DNA from: a virus
Strand: one strand, 5' to 3'
IMG/VR virus record: IMGVR_UViG_3300030419_004857
Coordinates: 97,266 to 161,265 of that record
Length of the DNA stretch: 64,000 nucleotides
Shown here in pieces: positions 37,390-61,331 of this stretch. A program made the translations under genes and the position numbers. Position 1 is the first letter of the stretch. Every line of letters starts with the position of its first letter. Under the pieces are notes generated by a model. The model was not told the origin of the DNA and searched no databases. It saw only the letters and a list, made by a program, of their open reading frames with translations.

Positions 37390-39185
37390 TAGACAGTTAC
37401 ACTCTTTGCTAGGTTACGAGGACGGTCAGGATTAAGCCCTTTTTCAACAGCCACATAATACGCAAGTAGCTGTAGTACAACATTTGCTGAAAGCGGTTCC
37501 ATCGCAGGATTATGCAGAGCATATGTTTGAAAAGTCCAGTCTGCAACTTCTTTAACTCTATCATAATTAACAGGGCTGGTAATAGCAAACACTTTTCCGT
37601 TTCTAGATTTAACTTCTCTCATATTAGAAATAATTGCATCCATGCCAAAAGAGCCAGTAACAGTAAATATACTTGGAGTCTCTTCGTCAACTAAAGCGAT
37701 GGGTCCATGTTTCATTTCTGCCGCTGGCATACCCTCCGCATGGATATAGCTAACCTCCTTCAACTTAAGCGCACCCTCTAAAGCTATTGGATAGTCCCAA
37801 TGTCTGCCCAAAAATAGAGCATTATCATATTGAGATACAATCTTTGCAATAGTTGATATGTCTTGTTCACGGTCAAGCACATGTTTAATTCCATTGGCTA
37901 AGGCGTATTGGTAGTCTAATACTTTAAGCTCGTTTTCTTCAGATTCAGATGACCAGTGCCAAGCAAGTTCCCATAATGCATAACAAGTTAGAGTAAAGGT
38001 TTTAGTGGCCGCAACTCCTCGTTCAATGTTTGCACCAATATCAATCGTATTGAAGAAAGAATTGCCAAGATGGGAGAAGGGTTGATTTGTAACTATAAAT
38101 ATACTGTCCGATCTCTCATTATGAGATGCACGAATAATATCTTTAGTTTCTCCACTTTGACTTATGTAGATTCTAGTTTCTTTAGGATCTTTAAGCGTTG
38201 CGTTAATAGCCTCGCTTCCGTAAGTTACCTTAGTGGGGATCTTTGCGAGTTCCTCAAACCAAACCTTTGCCCACATAGCTGCATAATAGCTACTACCACA
38301 ACCAATTAGATGTAGCCTCTTTGGACGAAACGGAGGATGGTACATAGGGTAATTGCCCATGTCCTCCATGAGAGAATATTGTTCTTTAATTTCCTTAAGC
38401 ATATAATGCTCTTCGGACATTTTAGCGTCTTCAGACTCTTCTGGAATTACAACTACTCGGTTTGGAGGGCTATTATAATTTCTTACAGAAGATATAATTC
38501 CAGAGGAAGACACACATGCTGTTGAGTTGGTTAATACTTCAGCCTCCTTTGCCATTCCAGATATTGCATAAGAATCACTACTGATATATCCATTGTTAGT
38601 GACAAGCAATGATTTATCACCTTTGCTTGCACAAAAAATGTGATCCGGTAGCTTTGAGAACGACACTAAGAAGGCATTGTCGCCTTCAAGATTTTGAATT
38701 ACTGAGTTGACTATCATTAGATAGTCTTCTGTAGAGATGGTAGGTTTTTTACGCAGAGGCTTAGTAAAACGATCCTCACTTTCAGCGACCATCCAATGCT
38801 GCGTTGTTCGCACCTTTAATTGCTGAACAATATATTTTGTATCCAACATATCTGCTGGAGAATTATCTACAGTTCCATTATGAACTACAAATATAGTCTC
38901 TTGATTATCATGTTGCGGATGAGCATTTCCTTTAGTGACCTCTCCGTGGGTTGCCCATCTGGTATGACCTATTGCGGAATTATAATTATAATCCTTAAGT
39001 GTGTCTGCGTAAGCATCAAGCCTAGTGTTTTGAGATATAATTCCAACATCTCTACAGAGAAGTTTGGAACCCTCTTTAAACGCGCAAAAGCCGTAGCTGT
39101 CATAGCCACGGTATTCCATTCGTTTCATTCCTGTTATAACCGATTCAACAGGATTGTCTCCTACGCACCCGATCACACCGCACAT
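37389..39185 (-). CDS. glmS: glutamine--fructose-6-phosphate aminotransferase
   Basis: MCG, EYRGYDS, GHTRWATHG, HNG, SQSGET, EGALKLKE, RNLAKSVTV. Confidence 0.95.
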   Translation of the reverse strand: MCGVIGCVGDNPVESVITGMKRMEYRGYDSYGFCAFKEGSKLLCRDVGIISQNTRLDAYADTLKDYNYNSAIGHTRWATHGEVTKGNAHPQHDNQETIFVVHNGTVDNSPADMLDTKYIVQQLKVRTTQHWMVAESEDRFTKPLRKKPTISTEDYLMIVNSVIQNLEGDNAFLVSFSKLPDHIFCASKGDKSLLVTNNGYISSDSYAISGMAKEAEVLTNSTACVSSSGIISSVRNYNSPPNRVVVIPEESEDAKMSEEHYMLKEIKEQYSLMEDMGNYPMYHPPFRPKRLHLIGCGSSYYAAMWAKVWFEELAKIPTKVTYGSEAINATLKDPKETRIYISQSGETKDIIRASHNERSDSIFIVTNQPFSHLGNSFFNTIDIGANIERGVAATKTFTLTCYALWELAWHWSSESEENELKVLDYQYALANGIKHVLDREQDISTIAKIVSQYDNALFLGRHWDYPIALEGALKLKEVSYIHAEGMPAAEMKHGPIALVDEETPSIFTVTGSFGMDAIISNMREVKSRNGKVFAITSPVNYDRVKEVADWTFQTYALHNPAMEPLSANVVLQLLAYYVAVEKGLNPDRPRNLAKSVTV

Positions 39186-39595
39186 ACCACATCTCCATTT
39201 TTATCCGACCACCAAATATCATCTACTCCGATGGCAGACAATACTGTTTGACAATCACCACACGGCTTGGAATTTCTCAGAATACATCCTCTTGACACTC
39301 TTAAAGATACTAAACTAAATGAACTATCTATTTGAGTCTTTCCCCATGCTTTTTGTACTGCATTGATCTCTGCGTGAATATACGGATACTTGATGCGGTG
39401 ATGGGTTTTAAATCTTTTAGCAAAGTACAAAGCCTTAGCGCAAGGTTTATCTTCACAATTCTGACCGATAGATATCAGCCTGTTCTTTTTCCACAAGAAG
39501 GAAAAATGAAAAGCCTTACATTTTTTAGCACTATATCGTTCGGGAAAAAGTTGACAGGCTATCTGAACAGACTTATCAATGTTCTTCTGATTCAT
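39173..39595 (-). CDS. Zn-dependent cytidine deaminase-like protein
   Basis: HAE...SKPCGDC. Confidence 0.75.
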   Translation of the reverse strand: MNQKNIDKSVQIACQLFPERYSAKKCKAFHFSFLWKKNRLISIGQNCEDKPCAKALYFAKRFKTHHRIKYPYIHAEINAVQKAWGKTQIDSSFSLVSLRVSRGCILRNSKPCGDCQTVLSAIGVDDIWWSDKNGDVVCAV

Positions 39596-39944
39596 TATAA
39601 TGAAGCTCTCTATGACAATTAGCGCAAAGAAGCATACACTTTTCGGCTTCTTTTACAAGTGTTTCAAATTTACACCTCATCTTACTTCCAGACAGTCTGA
39701 ATTCTTTTTCCTCTGGATTTATGTGATGAAAGTCTAAAGCGGCTGGGCATCTGTCATATCCACACAACTTACACTTACCGCCAAGATGTTCAACTAGCCT
39801 TTTTTTTCGAATCCGACCTAAAGTAACACCGAATATCCGATGGCATTCTTTACACCATACCGTGAGTCCGTCTGATTGGCTTCTGTTTTTAGAAAACTTA
39901 GCAGTCGTTTTTTCTTCACCACACTTACTACACTTCTTTATCAT
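39576..39944 (-). CDS. HNH endonuclease
   Basis: CSKC, CKEC, CKLCG, LDFHH, LCANCH. Confidence 0.85.
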   Translation of the reverse strand: MIKKCSKCGEEKTTAKFSKNRSQSDGLTVWCKECHRIFGVTLGRIRKKRLVEHLGGKCKLCGYDRCPAALDFHHINPEEKEFRLSGSKMRCKFETLVKEAEKCMLLCANCHRELHYNESEEH

Positions 39945-40113
39945 TCTTAGGGTTCCTAATGGGAGTTATTCTTTCTCTAGCGTCCCATTGAATTCTCTCA
40001 ACTTCTTTTTTTAGTTTTCTCTCTTCTCTTAAACTCTTGCGCCTATCTAGAACCTTTTTCTTCGCTAATCGTTCGCGCTGTTTTTTCTTCTTTTGCTTTC
40101 TTTTCAATGTCAT
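39928..40113 (-). CDS. small basic protein
   Basis: Lys/Arg-rich 61 aa, coupled to neighbours. Confidence 0.5.
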   Translation of the reverse strand: MTLKRKQKKKKQRERLAKKKVLDRRKSLREERKLKKEVERIQWDARERITPIRNPKNDKEV

Positions 40114-40595
40114 CCCTGTCCTCCCAAATCTAGCTCAAACGGATTATCTGGATCATTATGTGTTTTTAAATCTTCATCTTTATGGTTGTAGTCTTTGGAA
40201 TGAATAACTAAGTCACTACTACTTTGAACCTTTGCTCCTCCAAGATTCCATTTTAAACCAACACCATACTTTTCACAAAACTTAACCTCTGGAACATTAT
40301 TAGAAATCCTATCTCCACCGTTTCCAAAATAGCATGGTCGTAATCGGTCTAATGCATCACACACAGTCCCATCAGAGTCGTCAACCGAAACAACATGATG
40401 AACATCGGCAAATGCCTCTAGGATAGCTTTACGCTCTTCAAAAGTCATAAAGGCGTACCCCTTCTTACGAACCAACCATTCGTCACTGTTTAAAATAACA
40501 ATAACGCTACCATATTTAGCAGCATCTTTAATCATATTTAAGTGGCCGACATGAACGGGGTCAAAGCCTCCACTAATAGCTATAGTTTTATTCAT
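40110..40595 (-). CDS. cytidylyltransferase-family protein (TagD-like)
   Basis: SGGFDPVHVGH, NSD, ER, NGGDR, SSS. Confidence 0.85.
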   Translation of the reverse strand: MNKTIAISGGFDPVHVGHLNMIKDAAKYGSVIVILNSDEWLVRKKGYAFMTFEERKAILEAFADVHHVVSVDDSDGTVCDALDRLRPCYFGNGGDRISNNVPEVKFCEKYGVGLKWNLGGAKVQSSSDLVIHSKDYNHKDEDLKTHNDPDNPFELDLGGQG

Positions 40596-40610
40596 TTACA
40601 CCACCTAATT

Positions 40611-40871
40611 TTAAAAGTCAAAGAAGGCAATGCATTGCTCACCTTCTTCTGTAAACCTCATGCTTGCAGCCTTATTCATAAACTTTAGTAGCTCATCAGG
40701 CTCCAAACCAAAGATGATCCCTTCGTCTTCGGTATATCTTTTTTCAAAACTTGTAACTTGGATAGGACCAGTTTTGCTGTGGGATGCACTTGCCAACCAG
40801 ACGACATTAGACGCATCCATATCCATCTGAAAGAAAACTGTTACATCATTTTTGAATTTAATCTCGGGCAT
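40611..40871 (-). CDS. hypothetical protein (start trimmed to MPEIK to avoid the tmRNA)
   Basis: RBS AAGGA upstream of ATG at 40871. Confidence 0.55.
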   Translation of the reverse strand: MPEIKFKNDVTVFFQMDMDASNVVWLASASHSKTGPIQVTSFEKRYTEDEGIIFGLEPDELLKFMNKAASMRFTEEGEQCIAFFDF

Positions 40872-40888
40872 TTTTAATTCCTTTAAAG

Positions 40889-41228
40889 TGGAGGCGGCGG
40901 GAATCGAACCCGCGTCCTGTATAGTTTCCACAACAGCTTCTACATGGTTAGTTTATTGTATTCGCACAACAAACAAGGCTAGCCTGATAAGTTCGGTTGG
41001 TATGCTCAGACGGCCCATATCCAACCTAGAGTGTATTATTAAGGAAACACACTAAAACCTTTTTTGGTCTGATTGGTTAATAAGGCTCAGACCGACCCCA
41101 AGCTACACTAGGCAGCTAACGCATACTGCTTTTCGGCAGTTACTTTTTGGTCAGCTTTTATAGTGGCCAACTGACCAACCACTCCATGCAACTATTACTT
41201 CTGCTACCAGTCGAAACCAATCGCCCCC
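40889..41228 (-). ncRNA. ssrA: tmRNA, tag (A)AEKQYALAA at 41137-41108
   Basis: 5' GGGGGCGA...GGTTTCGAC; 3' GGACGCGGGTTCGATTCCCGCCGCCTCCA with G3-U70; resume context TAACT-GCC; tag ends ALAA-stop. Confidence 0.93.
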
Positions 41229-41234
41229 CTTGTA

Positions 41235-42257
41235 TTAAATACTTGTAATAAACGGCGGGAGTCCCGCCCCTAGAGCTAATGCTACATCTATCTCTGCGGC
41301 ACTATCAACTATATCTTCATTAAGAAGTCTATCGGCTTCTTCAAGCATAGGTGACATTAACCTATCTTTAATTACACTAGACGATTCCCTAACCTTTCCC
41401 GGCACAGAAAATCTACCAGCCCTTTTACCTGATATAACATCGTAGCTATAAAATCCTCTATGTGACTTTCTTCCGAAGTCTTTATTTTTGTATAGTTGAT
41501 GGCATACGCTATTATCAGAAACGGTTATGTGGTCATATGCTTTTGCTATACTTTGAGATCCGTGGTAGATAACATCAAGACCAACGAGATCACATAGTTC
41601 TGCTGGACCCATAGGCCAACCGTGATTTTTCATAACCGTATCTATATGAGAATAGTCATGACCTTCTGAGACCATCTTATCAAACTCAATAAGATAAGGC
41701 ATTAACATTCTATTGACTACAAAACCGCTACAGTCATTGCAAATCAGTGGCACTTTTCCTATAGCTAAAGATGTCTTACATAGAATAGCTACGGTTTCTT
41801 CTGAGGTAGATGAACCTGAAACTACTTCGACGAGAGGCATTTTAGATACAGGATTAAAGAAGTGCATTCCTCCAAAATTGCTTCTGGATGATATGTCTTC
41901 TACTTTAAATGTTGAAGTGTTTGTAGCAACAAACTGATCCACACACTTGGAAACAACTTCTCTCTTTAATGAAAGAACCTCTGGAACTGCCTCTATAACA
42001 AGATCGGAAGATTCAATTGCCTCTGATAGATCAGTTGTGGTTCTGATTAATGGAATATCTTCGGCTAACTTAAATTGACCTACATCTATATCATATAGGT
42101 TGACATTAATAGACGCCTTCTCAGCCAAAACAGAAGCAATACCCATACCCATAGCACCTGCTCCAAGAACAGCAACGGTTTTTGGGATATCGGCGTTGGC
42201 AGAAATTTTTTCTGCTTTGGATATGAGACCTGAATAAAATTTACTATTATCTGACAT
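41235..42257 (-). CDS. 3-hydroxyacyl-CoA dehydrogenase (C-terminal half of a FadB/FadJ-type protein)
   Basis: VLGAGAMGMGIA, IEAVPE, TNTST, GMHFFNPV, GFVVNR, GWPMGP..L.D.VGLD. Confidence 0.9.
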   Translation of the reverse strand: MSDNSKFYSGLISKAEKISANADIPKTVAVLGAGAMGMGIASVLAEKASINVNLYDIDVGQFKLAEDIPLIRTTTDLSEAIESSDLVIEAVPEVLSLKREVVSKCVDQFVATNTSTFKVEDISSRSNFGGMHFFNPVSKMPLVEVVSGSSTSEETVAILCKTSLAIGKVPLICNDCSGFVVNRMLMPYLIEFDKMVSEGHDYSHIDTVMKNHGWPMGPAELCDLVGLDVIYHGSQSIAKAYDHITVSDNSVCHQLYKNKDFGRKSHRGFYSYDVISGKRAGRFSVPGKVRESSSVIKDRLMSPMLEEADRLLNEDIVDSAAEIDVALALGAGLPPFITSI

Positions 42258-42418
42258 TTTTAACCTTGTGTGGAGTATCTTTCCAGAGTAAATAATTTAC
42301 CACTCCCCAGATCGCAAAGTAGTTGGCTTGATCTACATCTCTAAGAGCAAACGATATCATCGCCATACTCCAGCATAAAATATACGCAACATGTAAACAC
42401 GTCTTTAACATTATTAAG

Positions 42419-42490
42419 TACCCCCGGTGAGAGTCGAACTCACGTTACCGCTTTATAAGAACGGCGTTCTAACCGTTGAACTACGGGGGC
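42419..42490 (-). tRNA. tRNA-Ile(UAU)
   Basis: GCCCCCG...CCGTT-CTTATAA-AGCGG...GAGTTCGACTC...CGGGGGT-A. Confidence 0.88.
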
Positions 42491-42495
42491 AAGCC

Positions 42496-42762
42496 TTATG
42501 CCTTATCCCTATCTATACGGTTCAATATTTCCCGTAGTTCGTCGGTAGTCATTATTACGCTCTGCTTGCTCAATATTTTGGTATCATCAAACCATGTCTG
42601 AATAAAAGACACTTCTTTATTACCCTCGGAAGTAAAGGCTTTGGTTTCCCAATGAAAGCTACCCATGCCTTCGTCACATTTATATATTAACCGTCCCATG
42701 AAGTTCGCCTTGTGTTGATAGACTGCATTGAATTGCTCTTCCCAACAAAGCGTCCTTCGCAT
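42496..42762 (-). CDS. hypothetical protein
   Basis: ORF overlapping the aldolase end; real start likely near 42699. Confidence 0.45.
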   Translation of the reverse strand: MRRTLCWEEQFNAVYQHKANFMGRLIYKCDEGMGSFHWETKAFTSEGNKEVSFIQTWFDDTKILSKQSVIMTTDELREILNRIDRDKA

Positions 42763-43654
42763 CTTCCTTATTACCTTCGGCCCAATACTTTAGAGCATTG
42801 TGTTGTAATTCTCTCCCAAATGAGAACGACATATACCAAGGTAAATCATTTTCATTATTAATAGCATTAAGATTTTCCACCGCAACTCCATCATCCTGTC
42901 CACCACTAAGAAAAGCAATTATCGGAACGGCAGATGGAACTGTTCGCTTGAACGACCTCACAGTAAATTCCGCAGTAACGCTTGGATCATTCTTTATACC
43001 TGAAGCATACCCATTTAGAATCATGTTAGGTTTAAGTATCATATATTCCAACTTAACCTTTTCATAGAACATGGCATCAAATACATGATGCAACACTCTT
43101 TCAGTTACATCGGCAGCTTCATCTATACAATGAAATCCATCCATTATGATTTCTGGTTCGACAATAGGGACAACACCTTCAAGCTGGCACTTTTTAGCAT
43201 ACCTAGCAAGGTTCCAAGCGTTAGCGAGAATACAAGAACCACTATCATCAACATTAATAATAGCACGCCACTTGGCGAATTCGGCCCCCAAGTCTTTATA
43301 GAGGCTGAGTCTTTCTGTAAGTCCATCCAGCCCCTCCGTTAGTTTACATCCTACGCCATATGGTTTAGCCCCCGTGTCAACTTTAATACCCAGCGTAATC
43401 CCCTTTTCCCTTAAAGGTTGTACGGTGGGTTCACCATCCATAATATGTTTTAAGGTTTCCTCATACAAGATAACACCACTAATATAGTCCTCTAGAGCTT
43501 CTGTGGAAAACAGCGTGTGCCTATAATTATGCCTAGTTCCCGGCGTGGAGTCTACACCAACGGAATCAAACCTTTTTTTGATTGTTGGGCTACTCTCATC
43601 TGCTGCCAGAATACCCTTTCCATTCACGCTGAGTTTTTCAATGATGTCTTGCAT
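42680..43654 (-). CDS. fructose-bisphosphate aldolase class I
   Basis: GILAADES, GIKVD, FAKWR, VPIVEPE, LKPNM, FLSGGQ, SFSFGR. Confidence 0.93.
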   Translation of the reverse strand: MQDIIEKLSVNGKGILAADESSPTIKKRFDSVGVDSTPGTRHNYRHTLFSTEALEDYISGVILYEETLKHIMDGEPTVQPLREKGITLGIKVDTGAKPYGVGCKLTEGLDGLTERLSLYKDLGAEFAKWRAIINVDDSGSCILANAWNLARYAKKCQLEGVVPIVEPEIIMDGFHCIDEAADVTERVLHHVFDAMFYEKVKLEYMILKPNMILNGYASGIKNDPSVTAEFTVRSFKRTVPSAVPIIAFLSGGQDDGVAVENLNAINNENDLPWYMSFSFGRELQHNALKYWAEGNKEDAKDALLGRAIQCSLSTQGELHGTVNI

Positions 43655-43672
43655 TTTTATTTAATCCGTTGA

Positions 43673-43723
43673 AAATAATGGCCGACAACACCAGTAGTTT
43701 GTGGACTACTGATGCTGTCAGCC
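43673..43723 (-). terminator. long RNA hairpin (terminator or processing site)
   Basis: 19-bp stem at 43680-43723 with three G-U pairs on the minus strand, followed by ATTATTTT. Confidence 0.65.
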
Positions 43724-43749
43724 AACAGGTAGAACGCTAGCCTCCGTTT

Positions 43750-44055
43750 CTAGACCTCAAGAACCTGACGAATCTTACCCCTAAGAACTTGGTAGTTTCC
43801 ACGATTTGAAGAAGCCGTAGTAGCTCCAACAATACTATCCTTAAGAGAAGTAGTCACACCCAGCTTCTTTGCAGCTTGAGTAGTGGTTCCATTACCGAGT
43901 CCCGATGAACGACAAACGGCAGTAAGAGGATTAAACTTCTTTCCACGAGTCTTGCCATTTTTGGCAGTACCAACAATCTTCTTTCCCTCTACTGTCCATG
44001 TGTAGGCAGTAGTTGTCTTATTAAGGGCCATCAAAAATTGTGTCTCAGTCATCAT
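43750..44055 (-). CDS. hypothetical basic protein
   Basis: 101 aa, RBS GGAGG. Confidence 0.6.
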   Translation of the reverse strand: MMTETQFLMALNKTTTAYTWTVEGKKIVGTAKNGKTRGKKFNPLTAVCRSSGLGNGTTTQAAKKLGVTTSLKDSIVGATTASSNRGNYQVLRGKIRQVLEV

Positions 44056-44225
44056 TACTTTCCTCCGGGTTATTTCCTAGTTCTTTTTCGCAATCAGCGA
44101 TATGGGCTTGCAGAGTAGCTACTTGCTTCTCTAATTCCAAGACCTTTTGTTTGCAATGCTCAATATAAGCATTAGCCATCTCTTCTTTACTCGGCATCAC
44201 GTTCCTCCTTTACCTGTTTACTTAG

Positions 44226-44543
44226 TTAATATTTCTTAACAATTTTAGGATTAGCAGATAGGCGGTTGTTTTTACCTACCGTAACAAAAAAAGAGTCTGT
44301 TATCTTAAAGCCGGGAACAACCTTGTCAGTGCTATTGTAGAATTTGCACCATACATTTACTCGCCAGTAGTTATCCCACAGATGGTTTGCATCAACTCTA
44401 AAAAAGCCTTTTGGTTTCCCTAGTCTTGATATAATCTTTTTCTTTATCTGCTCCTCTAGTTCAGAGTTATCTCCTTTTGAGCTTGGTACATCCTGATGCA
44501 TTGAGTTCACACTTTTTTCAAGAACTTGAGTTTGCACATTCAT
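44226..44543 (-). CDS. hypothetical protein
   Basis: LWDNYWRVNVW...ITDSFF. Confidence 0.6.
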   Translation of the reverse strand: MNVQTQVLEKSVNSMHQDVPSSKGDNSELEEQIKKKIISRLGKPKGFFRVDANHLWDNYWRVNVWCKFYNSTDKVVPGFKITDSFFVTVGKNNRLSANPKIVKKY

Positions 44544-44643
44544 TCTCTCTTTCCCAAATAAACAATCCTGTTTTAGAGACTATCCCGCTCTATCACAATG
44601 ATACGCTTTTGATGGGAAAATGTCAACACTTTTTTAATTTTTT

Positions 44644-44859
44644 TTATTCTGCAAAAGACTCTTCCTCGGTAGAAATAACATTAAATGAGTCCTTAACGTA
44701 TCTACTATCATTCACGCCTCCTTCTGGAATGTCTATATCTGATATTAGATCCTCCAGAAGATAGTCTTCACTATAAAGATTTTCATCTTCATCTGTTTCT
44801 TCTGGAACTAAAACAGTACAGTCGTAGCTCACGGTGTATCGAACCTTATAAGTCCTCAT
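44644..44859 (-). CDS. hypothetical acidic protein
   Basis: 71 aa; resembles 51677..51880 (YVxxSF). Confidence 0.5.
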   Translation of the reverse strand: MRTYKVRYTVSYDCTVLVPEETDEDENLYSEDYLLEDLISDIDIPEGGVNDSRYVKDSFNVISTEEESFAE

Positions 44860-45025
44860 AGATTATACTCCCAGATCAACCAGCCAATACCAAGACCTAC
44901 ACCGAGTATGAGAAGATTGTAAAAACTTATAGTTAACATATCAAGTATATCATATCTTCTAAACTTTGGCTCCACTTTAAGTTCTCCCGTCTCTTTAGTA
45001 AGTATCTTGTTTTTATCCACCACGT

Positions 45026-45301
45026 CTACTCCTCTAGCTTATACAGATTTAAGAAGCGCTTAAAATATATCGCATTAGCTATGTTAATAATCTTGTTATA
45101 TTCTTCTGTTGATAGTGTAATGCTGGAGTGAGTTAGAACTTCAGAGCCATCAAAGATGGATTGAGTTACCGTCAGGCTGGCATCATCCATATCAAAAAAG
45201 GCCACTGTCTCAGTTTCCCTATTGGTTTTCTTAGACTTGTCTTTTTCATCGTATATAATCATTAGTAGTGAACCCTTCCAACTCTTACGAAAGTTGCGCA
45301 T
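45026..45301 (-). CDS. hypothetical protein
   Basis: ORF downstream of guaC. Confidence 0.45.
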   Translation of the reverse strand: MRNFRKSWKGSLLMIIYDEKDKSKKTNRETETVAFFDMDDASLTVTQSIFDGSEVLTHSSITLSTEEYNKIINIANAIYFKRFLNLYKLEE

Positions 45302-46305
45302 TTTGGAAAGTCTTTTAGATTTCTTGCACCTACATAAGCACAGGCGCTTCTTAAGCCTCCTGTAATTTGTTGGACAATATTAGAGACCGGTCCTTTATAA
45401 TCTACAAACATGGACTTACCTTCTGATGTTCTATAATTTCCTACGCCACCATTGTGTGCATCCATAGCATCTTCGCTAGACATTCCATAAAACTTTAAAG
45501 ACTTATTTTCTCCTTCATATTCCCATTTGCCTTCACATTCCTCGGTCCCGGCAAACATGCTTCCAAGCATAACAAAATCGGCCCCAGCGGCAAAAGCCTT
45601 AACGACATCGCCAGATGTCCTGCATCCGCCATCTGCACAGATATGACCGTTTAGACCATGAGCCGCATCCGCACATTCTATAATAGCTGACAACTGAGGA
45701 TAACCGCAACCTGTTACCATTCTAGTTGTGCATACACTACCCGGCCCGATACCAATTTTAACTATGTCGGCCCCACCACTGATTAGTAGTTCGCTTACCA
45801 TCTCTGGCGTACACACGTTTCCAGCCATAATTACAGACTCTGGAAACATCTCTCTAATACGTTTAACGTGATCTACAAAAACTTTTTGATAGCCGTTTGC
45901 CACATCAATACATATTTTATGTATGCCAAGACCCTCTTCCTCTATATCTGGAAGTTGATCATCAACCTCTAGCAGTTTATCAACCTCTTCTTCTTTTATA
46001 CCCAAAGTGTAGAATGTATTTCGTCTGGGGTGAAAAGTAAAGTAGTCTACTAAATCGTCTACCTCGTAGAATTTATGAAGACAGGTTTGCATTCCGTAGT
46101 CATGTAGGCTGTCAGACATTTCCATAGTGCCTACAGTGTCCATGTTAGCGGCAACAATAGGAACAACAAGCTCTTTTACTGGCACATGAAGATAGTGATA
46201 TTCTTTTCGGATATCCACTCTAGACCTACTGGTAAGAGTAGACCTTTTCGGCCTGATAAGAACATCATCAAAATCCAGCTTAATTCCGTCCGCTATGATA
46301 ACCAT
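45262..46305 (-). CDS. guaC: GMP reductase
   Basis: KLDFDDVLIRPKRSTL, ANMDTVG, IDVANGY, GIGPGSVCTTR, YPQLSA, FYGMSS, SEGK. Confidence 0.93.
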   Translation of the reverse strand: MVIIADGIKLDFDDVLIRPKRSTLTSRSRVDIRKEYHYLHVPVKELVVPIVAANMDTVGTMEMSDSLHDYGMQTCLHKFYEVDDLVDYFTFHPRRNTFYTLGIKEEEVDKLLEVDDQLPDIEEEGLGIHKICIDVANGYQKVFVDHVKRIREMFPESVIMAGNVCTPEMVSELLISGGADIVKIGIGPGSVCTTRMVTGCGYPQLSAIIECADAAHGLNGHICADGGCRTSGDVVKAFAAGADFVMLGSMFAGTEECEGKWEYEGENKSLKFYGMSSEDAMDAHNGGVGNYRTSEGKSMFVDYKGPVSNIVQQITGGLRSACAYVGARNLKDFPKCATFVRVGRVHY

Positions 46306-46308
46306 TCT

Positions 46309-46566
46309 TTATTTCCTCCAACCTAATCTCCAAAGCACGGTAGCAATTTCACTTGCCGTCTGTTCAACCCATTCTTCATCCTTCCACCAGTCAGCAGCGT
46401 GAAGTAGTTCATGTAATAGTGTATCTAGCTCCTCTTTACCTTCTATATCCTTAGATATTTTTATCTTCTTTTCGGGTATATGTGGGGCGTCACATTTTCC
46501 TAAATATTTTCCCTTCATTTTGGAAAAGATTAAGTCCCAATACTTTCCGCCTACTTTTATTCTCAT
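46309..46566 (-). CDS. small HExxH metalloprotease-like protein
   Basis: DTLLHELLHA. Confidence 0.6.
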   Translation of the reverse strand: MRIKVGGKYWDLIFSKMKGKYLGKCDAPHIPEKKIKISKDIEGKEELDTLLHELLHAADWWKDEEWVEQTASEIATVLWRLGWRK

Positions 46567-48422
46567 ACTTGTTCATCGTATCTCATAAGTATAGAATCAT
46601 ATGCGTTTCCATTCTGGGGATTTGCTAGAGTTTTACCAAGAGATACGCTCTTTCTAATTTGAAGATCCGTTGGGTGACTGCCTGTTATTTTATTTTTTAG
46701 GTTCTCGCAAGATACATCCGCTATAGCGGCCATTAGTGGGTCTGCTTTAGCAAAGGTATAGCAGACTGTAACCATCATAGTCACTAAATGTTGTATTCTT
46801 CGAGAAAGAATAGACATTCTGCATTGCTTATCCGCTAATCCTAGTTGGTATTTACGCATAAGACCGCTAATTTCTAAAGCGGATCGTTGAAGACCTCGAA
46901 TGGCATAGTTCGCGTGATCTATTATATTACTATTGAATCCTATTGGACGAATTCCCCTCTTGGGAAGGATGGTTTCTTTGATTAGCCACTCGGCATAGGG
47001 CGTGAATGTTTTATAGTTCTTTATTATATCTATAGGGCTTAAACTCTTCTTACCTAGACCGGACATTAACTTTCCAACAGGTTCAAAGAAGGTGGAGCCA
47101 TGATCTTTTACCAGACTTTTGAAAAAGGCCATATTTAACATATCGCCCTCGCCCTCATAAATTAGCGGGGCAAGAACATCGTGAATGTTGTCACCTACTA
47201 CATGACCACCCAAAAAGGATCTTCCGCCATGAGTTTTCATGCAAAGGTCTATAGCCGCTTCTTTCTGACACTCAGACCCAAAAGTTTTGGCTATAATACA
47301 TTCTAATTCTCCTCTGTAACCTTTGTCAATAAGACCTGAACACCAAGCAACAAGGGCATCTGAGGATAGTATATATCCAGCTAGCCTAGCGATACGCTCC
47401 TGCACTAACTCTCTGTTCTTAATCGACTGCCCATATGTTGATCTGTAGCTTGCCCAAGGTATCATAGATTCTAACATTGTCTTCATGCAGCCTGACGCAT
47501 TAGCACACAAAGAAATTCTACCTAAGTTTAACCCATGATATGCTACAGTCAAACCATCGCCCCTGTCCAACTCTATTAAGTTTTCTTTAGGGACTCTATG
47601 ATTCGTAAAGATTAGTGAATTGTTATTTAATCTTCTAAGAGCATGAATTTTATAGTGTCCAATTCTAAAAGTGTCAGTATCGCCGTCAGGGATTTCTACC
47701 AATAGAACTTGTGGCTTATTGTTTATTTGGCATACAACAGAAACAAGTCCTCCATAGTGGACGTTTGTGATAAATAGCTTTGTTCCATTCAGGATGTAAT
47801 GATCCCCATCCAATTTAGCATATGTTTTCAACGCTGTCAAGTCTGATCCTGCACATGGTTCGGTTAAAGCAAAAGCAGAAAGAAAAGTTCCATCAGCAAG
47901 TCCCGGCAAATACTTTTCTTTTTGATATTCATTTCCAAATGTTCTAACGGGATCTACTGATCCTATGCAGCCGTGAATCGAACACATACCAGCCACGCTA
48001 GGTTCAATCCTAGCCATCTCTGTAAGAAAGGATGAAAACTCTGAAAATGATAGGGCTGGTTTATTTGGCAATGGAACCAGTAAGCCGTAATAGCCACTAT
48101 CAGATAATGCTTGAATCACCTCTTTGGTTAACTTATCTTCGGATGTATACATCGCATCATCTGACTGATATTTTTTTACAATATCAATACAGTTGTTGAG
48201 CATGGTAGAGTTCGGTCTGTGAAAATCAAACTCAAAGAATTCCCTAGTAGGGAACTCTCGGCTCCATACAGCTTTAAATGCTGGACTATTCTTGGTTTGA
48301 TGCTTATCATCAAACAGTTCCTCTACCTGATCGTCTGCTATATCTACCTTGCCTATACTGGTAGACTCTGCTGCGGTCTTACCGCTTAACTCCATAGCAG
48401 TTTCAGCAAAAGATTTACTCAT
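46563..48422 (-). CDS. acyl-CoA dehydrogenase (FadE-like)
   Basis: AFALTEPCAGSD, LNGTKLFITN, LNLGRI, HGGRSF, IYEG. Confidence 0.9.
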   Translation of the reverse strand: MSKSFAETAMELSGKTAAESTSIGKVDIADDQVEELFDDKHQTKNSPAFKAVWSREFPTREFFEFDFHRPNSTMLNNCIDIVKKYQSDDAMYTSEDKLTKEVIQALSDSGYYGLLVPLPNKPALSFSEFSSFLTEMARIEPSVAGMCSIHGCIGSVDPVRTFGNEYQKEKYLPGLADGTFLSAFALTEPCAGSDLTALKTYAKLDGDHYILNGTKLFITNVHYGGLVSVVCQINNKPQVLLVEIPDGDTDTFRIGHYKIHALRRLNNNSLIFTNHRVPKENLIELDRGDGLTVAYHGLNLGRISLCANASGCMKTMLESMIPWASYRSTYGQSIKNRELVQERIARLAGYILSSDALVAWCSGLIDKGYRGELECIIAKTFGSECQKEAAIDLCMKTHGGRSFLGGHVVGDNIHDVLAPLIYEGEGDMLNMAFFKSLVKDHGSTFFEPVGKLMSGLGKKSLSPIDIIKNYKTFTPYAEWLIKETILPKRGIRPIGFNSNIIDHANYAIRGLQRSALEISGLMRKYQLGLADKQCRMSILSRRIQHLVTMMVTVCYTFAKADPLMAAIADVSCENLKNKITGSHPTDLQIRKSVSLGKTLANPQNGNAYDSILMRYDEQV

Positions 48423-48622
48423 TTTTCTCCTTCATCTTCCAACCAAGGAACTTTTTGACCATTGTGATCCACTTGAATAAAACCACACCCCTCACACAAA
48501 ACTGTGACTACAAGACCTTGTTCAACTTCTTCTTTTGTAAGAAGTCCAGCAAAATCACACTCGGCCTCATTAGTCTTACTACCAAACAAAAAATTACTAC
48601 AATCCAAACAGAAATCAGCCAT
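48419..48622 (-). CDS. small Zn-binding phage protein
   Basis: MADFCLDCS...LCEGCG. Confidence 0.6.
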   Translation of the reverse strand: MADFCLDCSNFLFGSKTNEAECDFAGLLTKEEVEQGLVVTVLCEGCGFIQVDHNGQKVPWLEDEGEK

Positions 48623-48624
48623 AA

Positions 48625-49245
48625 CTAGTCTCTCCTAGCTGTGAATACGAAAACATCCATGTAGTTTTCGTCGATTCCCTCAACATCTCTAGATATAGAA
48701 TTGCCGTCGTGCCATACTTCTCTATCATTAAATACAACAACTTCTCCCGGCTTCATTAACATACTCCAGACGGGATGCTCATCTTTATCGTCAAATACTA
48801 ACAGTTCGCCCCCGCACACATTGTGTCTGGCTATAGAAAATATACCAACAGCATCATACCCATCTTGATGTGGACCTTCTGGGGATAATTCAGCCATCAC
48901 AGAACTATGAGGAACCGTAACTCTCATTTGATGAACTTCCACGTTCTCCACGTCGAGATCGCCAGCCTGTCTAAATAGACCTAACATTTTTTTGAAGCAT
49001 TTGGTATTAACTACAGATTCTTGAATCGGCTCGAACTCTCTAGCTATATCCCCCTGATACTTATTATAGTCAGAGGATTGAGTAAATATACTTCCATCTA
49101 CAGGTGAGCCTAGAAAATCTATAACAGAATATCGTCTAAGTCTAAATTCACTATCTTTATGTCCCGTGTGTGGAAGATCATTAAATGATGACCTAACTTC
49201 ATCAACTAATTCGTCAGGTAGTCTATCTAAGATAAGTTTATGCAT
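48625..49245 (-). CDS. 2OG-Fe(II) dioxygenase (BsmA/Ido-like family)
   Basis: RLRRYS, YN, HQMR, PEGPHQDG, VWH. Confidence 0.8.
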   Translation of the reverse strand: MHKLILDRLPDELVDEVRSSFNDLPHTGHKDSEFRLRRYSVIDFLGSPVDGSIFTQSSDYNKYQGDIAREFEPIQESVVNTKCFKKMLGLFRQAGDLDVENVEVHQMRVTVPHSSVMAELSPEGPHQDGYDAVGIFSIARHNVCGGELLVFDDKDEHPVWSMLMKPGEVVVFNDREVWHDGNSISRDVEGIDENYMDVFVFTARRD

Positions 49246-49249
49246 TTTT

Positions 49250-49456
49250 CTACTCCATTATACTGTCGTGATAGTAACACACCAGTTCCCACCCTCTAAG
49301 ATTTTTTAACTCTTTTTGAAATTTAGATATTCCTACTATAAACCTATGACTTACCCACTCTTTTCTTAGTTCGATTGGTAATGTAAGAAAAGAATTTATG
49401 CCTTTGGTTTTTCTCTGGAAAAGAGCATATACTACAACTATATCTTCTCTAGCCAT
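49250..49456 (-). CDS. hypothetical protein
   Basis: 68 aa ORF in operon. Confidence 0.45.
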   Translation of the reverse strand: MAREDIVVVYALFQRKTKGINSFLTLPIELRKEWVSHRFIVGISKFQKELKNLRGWELVCYYHDSIME

Positions 49457-49736
49457 CTACCCCGTCGCTTGAAGGAATATCTATACCTAATTCTTCTATA
49501 CAATACTTATTAAGTGCTTCTCTTGCTTCTTTTTCTGTGTTGTATGGTCCGTAAGAATCCAACCAAATCTCATCCCAGAAATACCAACCTGCTTCTCTAT
49601 TTTCCGGTCTAGCATATTCAACATGGTCGTGAGGTATAAACTCTTTTAAGTTTAACTTTTCTCTAAACTCTTTCTTTTCCTCGTCACTTAATCTAATGTA
49701 TCTATACCAGCACTCTTTAGTTGCCTGACTGTTCAT
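49449..49736 (-). CDS. hypothetical protein, related to 53585..53782
   Basis: GWYF...GPYxTxxEA. Confidence 0.55.
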   Translation of the reverse strand: MNSQATKECWYRYIRLSDEEKKEFREKLNLKEFIPHDHVEYARPENREAGWYFWDEIWLDSYGPYNTEKEAREALNKYCIEELGIDIPSSDGVDG

Positions 49737-50013
49737 GGGTCATCTCATTTATGTCTAATTGTTTTTCTAAAGATTTATACATAAGGTTGCATGATATTTT
49801 AGCAATAGCCACACACTCCTCTCTCCTCTCTAGATCATCCTCCCCCATATAATCGGCTACAGCTTCAATAAACGAATACAGTACAATAGCTAACGACGGA
49901 TTATCTTTTTCTAAAGCAGAGGCAAATTCCTCTAGACCAAACATTTCATGCTTAGCATAAACCTCGTCTATTATACTCTCTACAGTTATACCTTTAACGT
50001 ATGGTAATTTCAC
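49717..50013 (-). CDS. hypothetical protein, related to 61960..62265
   Basis: PxV...NPxL...YxxLxxQ...EM pattern. Confidence 0.55.
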   Translation of the reverse strand: MKLPYVKGITVESIIDEVYAKHEMFGLEEFASALEKDNPSLAIVLYSFIEAVADYMGEDDLERREECVAIAKISCNLMYKSLEKQLDINEMTHEQSGN

Positions 50014-50975
50014 CCTCTTTCTCCGTTAAGGAACTTCTGTACCAGTTCTCTGCATTCGTCGCTCCTGACCAGTGGAATAAAAGCCTTACGCTCCATTTCC
50101 AGTGACTCATGCCTATGCATCGTTCTAGTTTTCTTTAGCACCTCTAAGGCTTTATAAGGAGAGGGGTACTTATTAGGGTCGCCAAACATCTTCTTCTGCT
50201 TCTTTTTGATGCTATACTTAACAAGTGGATAAGTTATACTGGCTCGGAACCTACCCATGCTGGTGGGGTTGATTTTATCATTCCTAATTTGCCAGAGAAG
50301 AATATTATTATTACTGAGATCGTTAATAACTTTACGGGCAGTATTCATAGCTTCGCTGTACTCTACTATACTATCAACCAGACCAATTTTCAATGCCTCT
50401 TTTTGTTTTACATTCCTTCCCGTACAAATAAGTTCAATAGCCTTGGTGGGATCAATGATTCGAGGCAGTCTGGTAGTCCCTCCCCATGAAGGCAAAATGC
50501 CTAGCTTAACTTCTGGCAACGCCAGCTTGGTAAGTTGTAGGGTAGTGTACTCTGGATTTTCTGGAACAGGGTCTTTAACCAAAATCCTAGTGGTACAAGC
50601 TAGAGCTAATTCTAGCCCTCCACCCATCGTTGTTCCCTTGATTATCGAGCAGGTAGGTATAGGTAAGTCTTCAATTCGGTTGAGTACATCTTGTCCCTCA
50701 GTTAAGAACCCATTTATTGTTTCATCATCTGCATCGTGTGCTGTAACAAATATTTTAATGTTAGCACCAACTATAAATGTTGACTTGTTGCTGCTAAATA
50801 TAACACCTTTGTAATCCCCTTTTTCCGCTACACCAACAAGAACCTCTAATTCCTGAAGGGTTTGCGTGTCAAGAAAATTATATGGTCTTTTCATATGGTC
50901 AAAGACGATATGCATAATATCATTGTGTCTATACGCTTTAAAATTTTCTAATGTTTCGCCTTTAAGTAACATCAT
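50010..50975 (-). CDS. enoyl-CoA hydratase/isomerase (N-terminal half of a FadB/FadJ-type protein)
   Basis: FIVGANI, GGGLELALAC, LPEVKLGILPSWGGTTRLPR, YPSP...FLN. Confidence 0.9.
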   Translation of the reverse strand: MMLLKGETLENFKAYRHNDIMHIVFDHMKRPYNFLDTQTLQELEVLVGVAEKGDYKGVIFSSNKSTFIVGANIKIFVTAHDADDETINGFLTEGQDVLNRIEDLPIPTCSIIKGTTMGGGLELALACTTRILVKDPVPENPEYTTLQLTKLALPEVKLGILPSWGGTTRLPRIIDPTKAIELICTGRNVKQKEALKIGLVDSIVEYSEAMNTARKVINDLSNNNILLWQIRNDKINPTSMGRFRASITYPLVKYSIKKKQKKMFGDPNKYPSPYKALEVLKKTRTMHRHESLEMERKAFIPLVRSDECRELVQKFLNGERG

Positions 50976-51213
50976 CTTTATGTCCCCATTTATTCACTAT
51001 GCGTTTTGCCATAGCTTTTGTATCGTACCACTCTAGCATATTGTTGAGTCTATATGATACGTCGGCCATCTCATCTTGAATTTTATTGTGGCGATCCTGC
51101 CAAGGCTTATTAGATTGTTTGATTAGTTCTCCAGCTAATTCTATTAGTTCTTCGGCTAACTTTTTAGCATCATGTTTCCAATCTTCATTATTATGCATTA
51201 TGCCTAAAGCCAA
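50962..51213 (-). CDS. MazG-like helical protein
   Basis: EELIEL...DEMADV. Confidence 0.55.
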   Translation of the reverse strand: MALGIMHNNEDWKHDAKKLAEELIELAGELIKQSNKPWQDRHNKIQDEMADVSYRLNNMLEWYDTKAMAKRIVNKWGHKDDVT

Positions 51214-51406
51214 TCTTTACAGTGTTGTTTTTAACATCAGTGGTAATGATCTCCTCTGGACGCACCCATTCGTTAGTCCTAGATTTACCATTCCACCAAC
51301 AACATTTATACTGAATCAAATCCTCAGATAAAATACTAACAGCAGTTACTCTGGCTTTGATATCATCACAAAGAATAACCTCTGTTCCCGGTTTATAAAC
51401 TTCCAT
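51191..51406 (-). CDS. small SH3-like protein (DUF2158-like)
   Basis: YKPGTEV...YKCCWWNG. Confidence 0.5.
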   Translation of the reverse strand: MEVYKPGTEVILCDDIKARVTAVSILSEDLIQYKCCWWNGKSRTNEWVRPEEIITTDVKNNTVKIGFRHNA

Positions 51407-51507
51407 CTTTATCTCCCCCTTAATCTATTTCTTCGAGCCAACCAAAATAGTCAGCCAGAAATGCAAACGTCCAAAGTCCAGCAAGACCACCTATAATTAA
51501 TACCCAG

Positions 51508-51735
51508 TCATTCATAGCTATCTTCCATTTGCATTTCTATCCAGTCTTGTTGAAATACCATCTCGTCTGCTTCATACTCTCGCATCAACTGATCCATAGC
51601 GAGTTCTTCTAATCCTGTGTTATCAAGAGACATAACGATCTTCCTGCACAGTTCACGCACATTTTCTTCAGTATAATCAGCCATTGTTAATATCCTCTGC
51701 AATTTCACGGTCAACTTGAAAACTACCATCAACAT
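51508..51735 (-). CDS. hypothetical protein, paralog of 53224..53526
   Basis: MADYTEEN...FQQDW vs MAEYTSEK...FHEDW. Confidence 0.55.
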   Translation of the reverse strand: MLMVVFKLTVKLQRILTMADYTEENVRELCRKIVMSLDNTGLEELAMDQLMREYEADEMVFQQDWIEMQMEDSYE

Positions 51736-51880
51736 AACTACTTTTGCTAGGCAAAGGAAAGTCGTTATCCTCTACTTTTTCAATTGCCTCGTCGAGATTT
51801 CTAGCAGCAACCTCAACAGTTCCATAAACCTCCCAACTACAGGGAATCTCATACCAATGCAAGTTATGCAAGTTACTCAT
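51677..51880 (-). CDS. hypothetical protein
   Basis: VEVAARNLDEAIEKV, RBS AGGAG. Confidence 0.55.
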   Translation of the reverse strand: MSNLHNLHWYEIPCSWEVYGTVEVAARNLDEAIEKVEDNDFPLPSKSSYVDGSFQVDREIAEDINNG

Positions 51881-51895
51881 TTTTAACTCCTTTCA

Positions 51896-52180
51896 TCACC
51901 AAGGAAGGTTATCATCAGAACCTAACATTTCATTACAGTCTTCGTCTGGGAATCCTACCTGTGGACATTCAACATGGGCATACTTTTCTTCAATATGCTT
52001 AACAAAAGCTAGAGCATCTTTAAGAGCTACAACGGCCCTCCTTGTAGGTGTAGTAGCCTTTTCGTATGCTTCTACTGTGGTGCTTTCACCGGGTGCAATT
52101 TCTTGCAGAGCATCACAGATTAGTTTGTCAATAGACCCTAGCATAACCTTTGTTCCGTAAGCACAATCACTCATCTTCAA
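51896..52180 (-). CDS. hypothetical protein
   Basis: 94 aa ORF. Confidence 0.5.
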   Translation of the reverse strand: MKMSDCAYGTKVMLGSIDKLICDALQEIAPGESTTVEAYEKATTPTRRAVVALKDALAFVKHIEEKYAHVECPQVGFPDEDCNEMLGSDDNLPW

Positions 52181-52457
52181 AATCCTTTAGAACATAGGAC
52201 TTGGCAATATCTTCAATTCTTCTAATTGCTTCCCACAAATCACTCTTATCTGGTTCATGGTCAGGGGGAAGACTGTCTAGTTTATTGATAATGCTAACAA
52301 TGTCGGCCATCTTAAATTTCGCAACCATATTTAAACCTTCTGAACTAGGTTCTGGTGGCGGTGCTAATACACAGTCAACTAAAGTATGTCCCGTACTTCC
52401 ACACCATGCACACATTGGAGCGTCACTCATTTTCAATCTCCTGTAGTTACATCCCAA
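52167..52457 (-). CDS. hypothetical protein with CCHC zinc knuckle
   Basis: CAWCGSTGHTLVDC. Confidence 0.55.
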   Translation of the reverse strand: MGCNYRRLKMSDAPMCAWCGSTGHTLVDCVLAPPPEPSSEGLNMVAKFKMADIVSIINKLDSLPPDHEPDKSDLWEAIRRIEDIAKSYVLKDFEDE

Positions 52458-52595
52458 TCATCAATAAGTTTAGTTTCAGATTCATCTTCCTTCAAAAAAA
52501 ATGCACATTCATGGCATCTGTAAACTACATTATCGTCGTCATAACATTTATAAACAACTCCTGTGATTTTGTTACAGTCTTCACAAACAGGCAAA

Positions 52596-53366
52596 TTACT
52601 CATCTTCAACCTCCTTGAAGTCTAACGCTTCAGCCGTGATGGGAAATTCAATATTAAATATACTCTTTATTTCTTCTGCAATGTCTCTATGTTCTTTCTG
52701 TGTTGAGGGATCTGTTCTTAACTTTATATAATGTATCCAGCTACGCACAGTTCCATTCATATACATCCTTGTCTTGGTGCTTAGTGGTAATAGGAATCTA
52801 GCACATTCCTTGGCTATTCCTTTTTCCAGTGCCTTCTTATACAGACGCTCACTGTCATCCTGTACAGAAAGCATAGCAAGTCTATACCAATCTTTATCAT
52901 CATCACTAAGATCGTCTAAAGAATTCTGCCTATTTTTCTTGTCCTGTCTTCTTGGAGGATTATACTCAAACCCTAATGCCTCTGCGTACCTCTGACTAAA
53001 TTCTTGAAAGGAAAAGCTACGATGTCTAAGTATCTGAGCAGCTATACCTCTAGTGGTTTCAATTTCCACTACCATGTTAGCCATCTCAAATATAGACCAG
53101 TGGCCGTACTTAATACAATAAGACAGAAGTTTAGATACATCTGGGTTATCTTGATTTGCAGGATTACTGACTCTGGCACAATAGCCAATAATATTCTCTG
53201 CATTGGGAGTTACTGATATTAGTTTAACTCTCAAAATCTTCTCCTTCGTATCCACCTTCATGCCTAAACAATCTAAGATCAGGATGGCTAATATCTTCTT
53301 CATCAAGACCAAAGTAGGTATGCCAGTCTTCATGAAACCCTTCTTCGTTGACTTCATATCCTTCAC
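52596..53366 (-). CDS. thyX: flavin-dependent thymidylate synthase (true start downstream, about 53260-53225)
   Basis: [43 protein letters not shown]. Confidence 0.93.
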
Positions 53367-53526
53367 GGATATAATGATAAGCTAAATCAAGCAATTGCTC
53401 CTGATCCATAGACTCAACAACATAATTAGCTAGCTCGGTCATTTTCTCACTGGTGTATTCCGCCATTATGCTCTCCTTAGTTACTAATGTTAAAGAAAAC
53501 CCCGCCAGACTAAAGAAGAAACACAA
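53224..53526 (-). CDS. hypothetical acidic protein (start probably 53466)
   Basis: RBS AAGGAG; paralog of 51508..51735. Confidence 0.55.
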
Positions 53527-53584
53527 ATGGGTACGTTAGCCTAGACGATATTTCGCGCCTATAAAGTTAACTTACATACTTGAA

Positions 53585-53782
53585 TTAATCTGACGGGGTT
53601 TGTTCTCTCTGTTCAGCTTCCTCTTTACTATCGTATGGTCCCCACAATTGACCACCATAAAAATAGTACCAACCTTTGCCATTATATCCAGCAGTACCAC
53701 ATTCAGGATAGCTATTCCCAGTAAACGCTGGGTCCATACGATAATAATCTACGCTCATAGTACCACCGGGATCTCCAGACAC
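53585..53782 (-). CDS. hypothetical protein
   Basis: GWYYF...GPYDSKEEA. Confidence 0.5.
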   Translation of the reverse strand: MSGDPGGTMSVDYYRMDPAFTGNSYPECGTAGYNGKGWYYFYGGQLWGPYDSKEEAEQREQTPSD

Positions 53783-53976
53783 TTACCAACCTTATAAGCA
53801 TAAGTATCGGCAGTCATCTTATTGAATGTTTCATAACGAAGGGGAAAATGTTTGTATGCACCCAAACGTCCTTCGTCTGGATTCTTAGCAAACAACTTAA
53901 TATGGTAGTAGGGCTTATCGTGCTTGTAATGCTTCTCAACTTTAACGTAACTATCTTTGACTTTACTCATCTTCAA
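53755..53976 (-). CDS. hypothetical protein
   Basis: 73 aa ORF. Confidence 0.5.
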   Translation of the reverse strand: MKMSKVKDSYVKVEKHYKHDKPYYHIKLFAKNPDEGRLGAYKHFPLRYETFNKMTADTYAYKVGKCLEIPVVL

Positions 53977-56063: not shown

Positions 56064-56082
56064 CTTCTAACTATTCTATTAA

Positions 56083-61325: not shown

Positions 61326-61331
61326 TCCAAT

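Follow-up and report, generated by a model that had tools for sequence, protein, structure and literature searches.

A FadB-type beta-oxidation enzyme carried as two separate genes, parted at the inter-domain linker, in an uncultured marine phage

We analysed a 64,000-nucleotide stretch of viral DNA (the window), which corresponds to bases 97266-161265 of a 161,265-bp IMG/VR virus record. The record comes from an uncultured marine phage, is rated 100% complete by CheckV and elsewhere carries RIIA-like, ribonucleotide reductase and terminase genes. On the minus strand of the window lie an enoyl-CoA hydratase open reading frame (ORF; P0001) and a 3-hydroxyacyl-CoA dehydrogenase (HADH) ORF (P0002), each with its own start and stop, 7.7 kb apart and with an acyl-CoA dehydrogenase (ACAD) gene in between. 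An earlier look at these letters without database searches (the sequence-only reading) had placed both ORFs correctly and had read the end of the hydratase and the start of the HADH exactly as they stand; it took the two for parts of one ancestral FadB-type gene. In the order of minus-strand transcription, in which further small ORFs lie between the IMPDH/GMP-reductase gene and the aldolase gene, the features are as follows.

50010..50975, minus strand: enoyl-CoA hydratase ORF, P0001, 321 aa (Pfam ECH_1/ECH_2, ECH_1 at 3.9e-27)
49250..50013, minus strand: three small ORFs (98, 95 and 68 aa) between hydratase and dioxygenase, taken from the ORF list (no Pfam match)
48625..49245, minus strand: 2OG-Fe(II) dioxygenase of family PF10014, between hydratase and ACAD (Pfam, 1.5e-41)
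46563..48422, minus strand: ACAD, P0003, 619 aa, of long, VLCAD/ACAD9-like size (Pfam Acyl-CoA_dh_N/M/1)
45262..46305, minus strand: IMPDH/GMP-reductase family gene, between ACAD and HADH (Pfam IMPDH, 1.8e-74)
42680..43654, minus strand: class I fructose-bisphosphate aldolase, immediately upstream of the HADH ORF (Pfam Glycolytic, 1.1e-101)
41235..42257, minus strand: HADH ORF, P0002, 340 aa (Pfam 3HCDH_N at 1.6e-34, 3HCDH at 2.5e-29)

The best PDB match of the hydratase ORF is Escherichia coli FadB (6tnm_A), aligned over residues 15-310 with an E value of 2e-48, compared with 1e-25 for the best monofunctional crotonase. Because the match spans 6tnm_A 15-310, P0001 carries about 80 residues of FadB-specific tail: its residues 240-318 align to 6tnm 225-310, the C-terminal helices and linker that lie beyond the crotonase core, and its translation ends ...KYPSPYKALE...CRELVQKFLNGERG*. 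An AlphaFold2 (AF2) model of P0001 (pLDDT 85.7) superposed by Foldseek on FadB alpha subunits gave TMq 0.86-0.87 over 314 columns with a root-mean-square deviation of 1.8-2.0 Å, whereas monofunctional crotonases reached TMq 0.58-0.67, and the predicted structure has a FadB-type fold along its whole length. The catalytic residues Glu122 and Glu155 align with the catalytic Glu residues of E. coli FadB and show no variation among 21 homologues (15, plus six further loci described below), and between them lies a 13-residue insert that is common to all split hydratases.

The HADH ORF, whose translation starts MSDNSKFYSGLISKAEKISANADIPKTVAVLGAG, likewise finds its best PDB match in E. coli FadB, over residues 315-681 of 6tnm_A (E 3.6e-54). 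Among monofunctional HADHs the top score is 1.6e-43, for an alignment confined to query residues 65-275, whereas fused proteins score higher and reach residue 336. P0002 corresponds to a Rossmann domain, a 3HCDH domain and, as far as the alignment goes, the putative start of a second 3HCDH-like repeat; its residues 273-340 are FadB-specific, and residues 296-336 align to 6tnm 640-681, with the protein ending at GLPPFITSI about 50 residues short. It further shows a deletion of about 25 positions in the NAD domain and a new N-terminal leader of 11 residues. The G32-x-G34-x-x-G37 motif, D56, H132 and E144 are invariant in 13 sequences; N182 is invariant too among the homologues aligned, and S115 nearly so. 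The AF2 model of P0002 (pLDDT 59.9) was too poor to judge the fold and was not used.

Fused relatives were found by an exhaustive profile-free search with the hydratase ORF. At its top stood a split homologue at 61% identity, followed by a fused 663-aa protein (P0005) that shares 42% identity with the hydratase ORF in its N-terminal half and 56% with the HADH ORF in its C-terminal half. P0005 is a member of a family of short fused FadB proteins of 644-670 aa (alignment A1, which holds P0005, P0158, P0159, P0164, P0190, L005, L019 and others) that is known only from viral and metagenome contigs (up to 151 kb and 156 kb). Members are 40-44% identical to the hydratase and 51-62% identical to the HADH, and they have in common with the separate HADH a shortened C-terminus, ending soon after GFPPF. 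Bacterial FadB proteins (at least 713 aa) came next in the search, at 41% identity or less, and a scan of 185,579 prokaryote species, one genome each, gave no relative above about 40%, the best being gammaproteobacterial and Bdellovibrionota FadB. P0005 itself was absent from the viral contig collection searched, and tblastn of both halves against GenBank phages returned only mislabelled bacterial records and distant crotonase and HADH genes. Two library proteins that start as E. coli FadB and continue into unrelated sequence (P0006, P0008) are probably chimeric assemblies and were excluded from all analyses.

Fused versions accompanied by a thiolase, which the sequence-only reading had suggested looking for in related phages, were recovered in two contexts: L005, a 60.8-kb IMG/VR viral contig, and L019, a 15-kb metagenome contig. 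In both, an ACAD, a fused FadB and a thiolase follow one another with almost no spacing, and each of the two ACADs shares 61% identity with the ACAD of the window, whose own PDB matches are ACADs, including VLCAD and ACAD9, over residues ~70-464. No terminase was found in the L005 record, which is assigned to viruses by IMG/VR classification and gene content alone. CheckV gives this 60.8-kb record a completeness of 12%, which hints that the genome may be very large; the contig with the cassette region (L005:2724-6500) has genes for a GlpX-type fructose-1,6-bisphosphatase and for an actin homologue of the Volactin family as well.

Pfam names only generic domains in the two ORFs, which on its face would also suit an ordinary monofunctional crotonase and an Hbd-type enzyme captured separately from bacteria, with a superficial likeness to FadB. 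Such an origin is very improbable. Beyond their own split families, every nearest relative of the halves is fused, those of the hydratase being proteins of 650-730 aa rather than monofunctional crotonases; the hydratase has some 80 FadB-specific C-terminal residues within a FadB-like predicted fold, and residues 273-340 of the HADH are FadB-specific as well. We built maximum-likelihood trees of the two domain partitions under LG+C20+F+G4, the HADH tree from 40 of 60 rows after leaving out 16 long-branched ~700-aa proteins of unknown origin, P0345, P0357, P0358 and the duplicates L089 and L019. Split hydratases form one clade (100/100), split HADHs form one clade (100/100), and both are nested, at 100% support (100/98 to 100/100), in the same inner clade of fused proteins. 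The sequence-only reading had named grouping with unrelated monofunctional enzymes as the outcome that would tell against it; both halves nest in one fused clade instead, and trees and profile coordinates together refute separate capture.

The position of the break could be read by matching the split proteins to a profile built from the fused family. All 16 split hydratases match profile positions 3-289 and end 3-4 residues later, and all 12 full-length split HADHs start their match at positions 293-296, after a non-homologous leader of about a dozen residues, with a gap at positions 348-374 in each. The window's halves fall at 3-289 and 294-648, and at 15-310 and 315-681 of 6tnm_A, so that they are consecutive halves of a FadB-type enzyme split at the linker, as the sequence-only reading had proposed. 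The same complementarity holds for every member: the hydratases end and the HADHs begin no more than about 4 profile positions apart, and there is neither overlap nor gap. Read from a MAFFT addfragments alignment, the junction sets ...ELVQKFLNG-ERG* over ...SLIEIFFGE-RKLKATAQELAS, then GLISKAEKISA. These coordinates support the descent of both ORFs from a fused FadB-type enzyme, with the break in the inter-domain linker. P0357 and P0358 (336-338 aa) start at profile positions 313-318 and were considered as further splits; they cluster among fused proteins, however, and resemble gene calls cut short at the N-terminus.

Both halves are under purifying selection. In L001, an 84.5-kb viral contig that carries the hydratase, dioxygenase, ACAD, a GMP-reductase-like gene, aldolase and HADH in the order seen in the window, the hydratase is 80%, the ACAD 83% and the HADH 90% identical to its window counterpart, and dN/dS between the two is 0.107 for the hydratase, 0.157 for the HADH and 0.043 for the ACAD. 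Of the two halves the hydratase changes at about double the rate (dN 0.118, against 0.063 for the HADH).

With these three genes the phage encodes steps 1-3 of beta-oxidation, the three of four steps that the sequence-only reading had counted. The thiolase that it did not find in the window is missing from the whole 161,265-bp record as well, in a search for PF00108 that was positive in all 14 control genomes, and neither an electron-transfer flavoprotein (ETF) nor an AMP-forming (AMP-binding) acyl-CoA ligase was found in the record. Since none of these was found in the genome, the phage must rely on its host for the thiolase, ETF and ligase steps.

We propose that the ancestor was a virus-borne short FadB, a fused hydratase-dehydrogenase of 644-670 aa of the kind that other contigs carry between an ACAD and a thiolase. 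It would most likely have been broken once, in the linker, into a hydratase gene with the end ...FLNGER and a dehydrogenase gene that acquired a short new leader, and the two genes would later have been separated, exchanged and lost independently in the variable metabolic-gene region of the phage family. Both halves would remain working enzymes, to judge from their sequences. During infection the hydratase, the HADH and the phage ACAD would probably act as three soluble, separate enzymes that take host acyl-CoA to 3-ketoacyl-CoA and yield reduced flavin and NADH, with fatty-acid activation, re-oxidation of the ETF and the thiolytic step left to the host. We hold this account, taken as a whole, to be probable, though with some reserve.

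Several results weigh against it. The sequence-only reading had proposed testing the halves for congruent phylogeny, and congruent they are not: the sister group of the split hydratases is P0175/P0184/P0190 (100/97), and that of the split HADHs is P0005/P0158/P0159/P0160/P0163 (98/91). In approximately unbiased (AU) tests the hydratase data reject trees that unite the split hydratases and the P0005 group as a clade (p 0.004 when 3 split rows are included, 0.012 when 16 are), and the HADH data likewise reject trees that unite the split HADHs and the P0175 group (p 0.0002). The differing sister groups need extra recombination in the P0175 clade, long-branch attraction or two separate origins. 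Further, the order hydratase-ACAD-HADH cannot be derived from ACAD-FadB-thiolase by simple insertion, and no locus with adjacent halves occurs among the loci recovered, which do not include the 100-177-kb contigs that carry P0158, P0159, P0190, P0323 and P0448. As to expression, contigs of one metatranscriptomic library cover the HADH, ACAD and dioxygenase genes, which is a weak hint, DNA being possible in such a library; no contigs of that library lie over the hydratase, which is not evidence of silence. The analysis establishes the descent of the halves from the fused family, the site of the break, the intact state of the catalytic residues, purifying selection and the lack of the remaining steps in the genome; a single fission, enzyme activity, the substrate, the direction of flux and the independence of the two proteins are what we infer.

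The conflict between the trees would disappear if the halves had arisen by two independent truncations. The hydratase would then be an older remnant of a P0175-like fused allele that spread widely in the phage family, the HADH a younger remnant of a P0005/L019-like allele that perhaps arrived with the ACAD, and the complementary ends would mark only the domain boundary, where truncation is tolerated. Apart from the differing sister clades and the two significant AU tests, such a history would suit the hydratase data in that these are compatible with a tree in which L005, the P0175 group and the split hydratases form one clade (p 0.10), P0175 standing beside L005 with the split clade attached. 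It would also suit the deeper diversity of the hydratases (48-100% identity, ~75 clusters) compared with the HADHs (67-100%), the existence of hydratase-only and HADH-only phages, and the exchange of single genes seen in the viral contig L103 (below). However, two unconnected truncations would have had to leave ends that complement each other, without overlap or gap, in every member, and the twofold faster evolution of the hydratase on its own explains both its deeper diversity and its longer stem (0.85; the P0175 hydratases are also fast-evolving). The window hydratase is 40-44% identical to every inner fused clade, and because this identity is so nearly flat its sister placement may be long-branch attraction. 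One fission together with a domain-level recombination in the P0175 lineage would fit as well: when the P0175 lineage is pruned from the hydratase tree, the P0005 group becomes the nearest fused relative of both halves. We consider two truncations rather unlikely and a single fission moderately probable, one break being favoured because the ends are exactly complementary.

After the proposed fission the halves seem to have gone separate ways. The sequence-only reading had envisaged a fission with both halves retained; the split at the linker bears out the first part, but the two halves occur together only in the window and in L001, and other related phages have one half. The split hydratase is present in six further viral contigs (L103 to L108), where it keeps both catalytic Glu residues and the FL.GER end. 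In L103 it lies directly upstream of an ACAD, with no HADH in the whole 24.6-kb record. There (L103:8222-13893) the ACAD is 90% identical to that of the window and the hydratase, 6 nt upstream, only 63%, a sharp mosaic boundary between neighbours from which we conclude that the genes of this region are exchanged singly. No ACAD or HADH was found within the fetched loci of L104 to L108, and in at least two large records of related phages, G005 (77 kb) and G006 (119 kb, 79% complete), whole-record searches found the hydratase and no ACAD or HADH. Conversely, L003 (a 36.6-kb record) and L089 have the HADH, and neither a hydratase nor an ACAD lies within reach there. A PF10014 dioxygenase lies near the hydratase in L001, L103, L104, L105, L106 and L108.

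Because G005 and G006 carry the hydratase alone with both Glu residues kept, it can presumably work without the HADH, and because related phages carry one half alone, an obligate two-piece enzyme is unlikely; each half would evidently have value on its own. This bears on the idea that the halves re-associate non-covalently into a FadB-like heterodimer, possibly docked on the host thiolase, so that the split would be functionally silent. In MFE-1/FadB structures the part where the second 3HCDH-like repeat begins is packed onto the hydratase domain, and the HADH ORF keeps residues 296-336, aligned to just this part, which monofunctional HADHs are without; both halves are, moreover, kept in the window and in L001. 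Set against this, records as long as 119 kb and as complete as 79% have only the hydratase, its active site intact, other records have the HADH alone, and the two genes are 7.7 kb apart with unrelated genes between them. A heterodimer is thus possible but on the unlikely side.

A more tentative proposal, which we think doubtful, takes the lone hydratases as the main outcome. The break would have freed the hydratase domain of FadB as a stand-alone, widely spread phage metabolic gene, with both Glu residues, found in many phages without HADH, ACAD or thiolase and usually near PF10014. It would imply a phage-specific CoA-thioester reaction or manipulation of host lipids, not ordinary beta-oxidation, and the window phage would be a rare state in which the pieces coexist.

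For the window phage the most economical reading is that it may gain NADH and reduced flavin by boosting the oxidation of acyl-CoA from the host. Fatty-acid degradation proteins are raised in nutrient-limited virocells (PMC11170926), and the boosted-oxidation reading is in line with these data as well as with viral fadB in marine viromes (PMC4053976). The enzymes may instead act on another CoA thioester, for example a branched-chain or hydroxylated acyl-CoA tied to the PF10014 dioxygenase, or the hydratase may serve mainly as an isomerase or epimerase, activities that the N-terminal domain of FadB also has. In most loci the hydratase has the 2OG-Fe dioxygenase close by, it can be found without ACAD or HADH, all split hydratases have the 13-residue insert between the catalytic Glu residues, and the genome yielded no thiolase. 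All standard catalytic residues are kept, however, the closest relatives sit in complete ACAD-FadB-thiolase cassettes, and nearness to the dioxygenase may be mere conserved synteny, so that we give a different substrate only a minor chance and prefer acyl-CoA oxidation.

FadB, which forms the alpha subunit of the gammaproteobacterial complex for aerobic fatty-acid oxidation (E. coli 6tnm; Pseudomonas fragi 1wdk), is the solved structure that best matches both ORFs, and it has the same domain content and order, the Glu/Glu and His-Glu catalytic residues and the hydratase fold. FadB, however, is a single chain of 715-729 aa bound to the thiolase FadA, whereas the phage has two chains, encoded 7.7 kb apart and ~33-39% identical to FadB, and no thiolase was found; the 13-residue hydratase insert, the NAD-domain deletion of ~25 positions and the missing last ~50 residues set the halves further apart from it. 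The phage system lacks two features of the FadB/FadJ type (TFE-alpha / MFE-1), namely two activities on one polypeptide and a partner thiolase, FadA or FadI, alongside. The short fused family (A1) holds the closest relatives of both halves and has the same short C-terminus, but differs by its fusion and by the ACAD-FadB-thiolase cassette. Pairs such as Clostridium Crt (5z7r) and human HADH (1f0y) likewise use two proteins for steps 2 and 3; these monofunctional crotonases (~260 aa, hexamers) and HADHs (~300 aa, dimers) are separate, older families without the FadB-type tail or second repeat, and their matches to the phage ORFs are much poorer. Another viral cassette, at L110:8721-13649 in a 107-kb viral contig with a terminase, is unrelated: it also places beta-oxidation genes in a virus, but with a fused FadB and the opposite gene order (thiolase, fused FadB, ACAD), and its genes are 28-35% identical to those of the window.

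The sequence-only reading had called such genes unusual for a bacteriophage, which overstates the case: fadB reads were detected, at read level, in Pacific Ocean viromes (Hurwitz et al. 2013, PMC4053976), and L005 and L019 hold an intact ACAD-FadB-thiolase cassette. The novelty lies in the split itself, in a breakpoint that is single and conserved, and in the different courses that the two halves have taken; a literature search found no paper on fission of FadB or on a split form. Since fadB had been seen in viruses before and the enzymes are of an ordinary kind, we place the advance in evolution and ecology and not in mechanism. The locus offers a clean, datable case of a multifunctional enzyme cut at a domain linker within a virus lineage, in which uncut, cut with both pieces and single-piece forms can all be compared. 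It makes testable the need for substrate channelling and a FadA complex in a phage that wants a short burst of reducing power, as well as the role of a lone FadB hydratase domain in the infected cell, and it adds evidence that some large marine phages carry fatty-acid oxidation enzymes of their own.

The layout of the 9.7-kb stretch from hydratase to HADH recurs elsewhere: at least 60% of its sampled words are present in 19 marine metagenome runs from at least 6 studies, and all 30 of its bins are covered near-identically by 2 runs from other studies. Since these two runs cover the stretch end to end, the layout is not a one-off assembly artefact. Promoter and terminator scans gave no excess over shuffled expectation. 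At window 43679-43724, just upstream of the aldolase gene, is a hairpin with a stem of 20 bp (85% complementary) and a loop of 6 nt, and a T-rich tail comes after it. The stretch belongs to a longer one-strand run of metabolic genes (window 37389-54980) that includes a GlmS-like amidotransferase, dCMP deaminase, a cytidylyltransferase, the class I aldolase, IMPDH/GMP-reductase, the PF10014 dioxygenase, ThyX and a sigma-70 region-4 protein, and whose gene content varies among related phages. Elsewhere, L019 has one further gene in common with the window phage: a DUF1501 protein of 412 aa (window 25239-26477) is 83% identical to one at L019:6444-7682, with unrelated flanking genes. Over the last 8 kb of the record (window 56000-64000) the GC content climbs from ~0.39 to ~0.52; a chimeric join was considered for this 52%-GC end and rejected, and because L001 keeps GP88-like and DUF932-like genes in the same adjacency, the high-GC end is native DNA.

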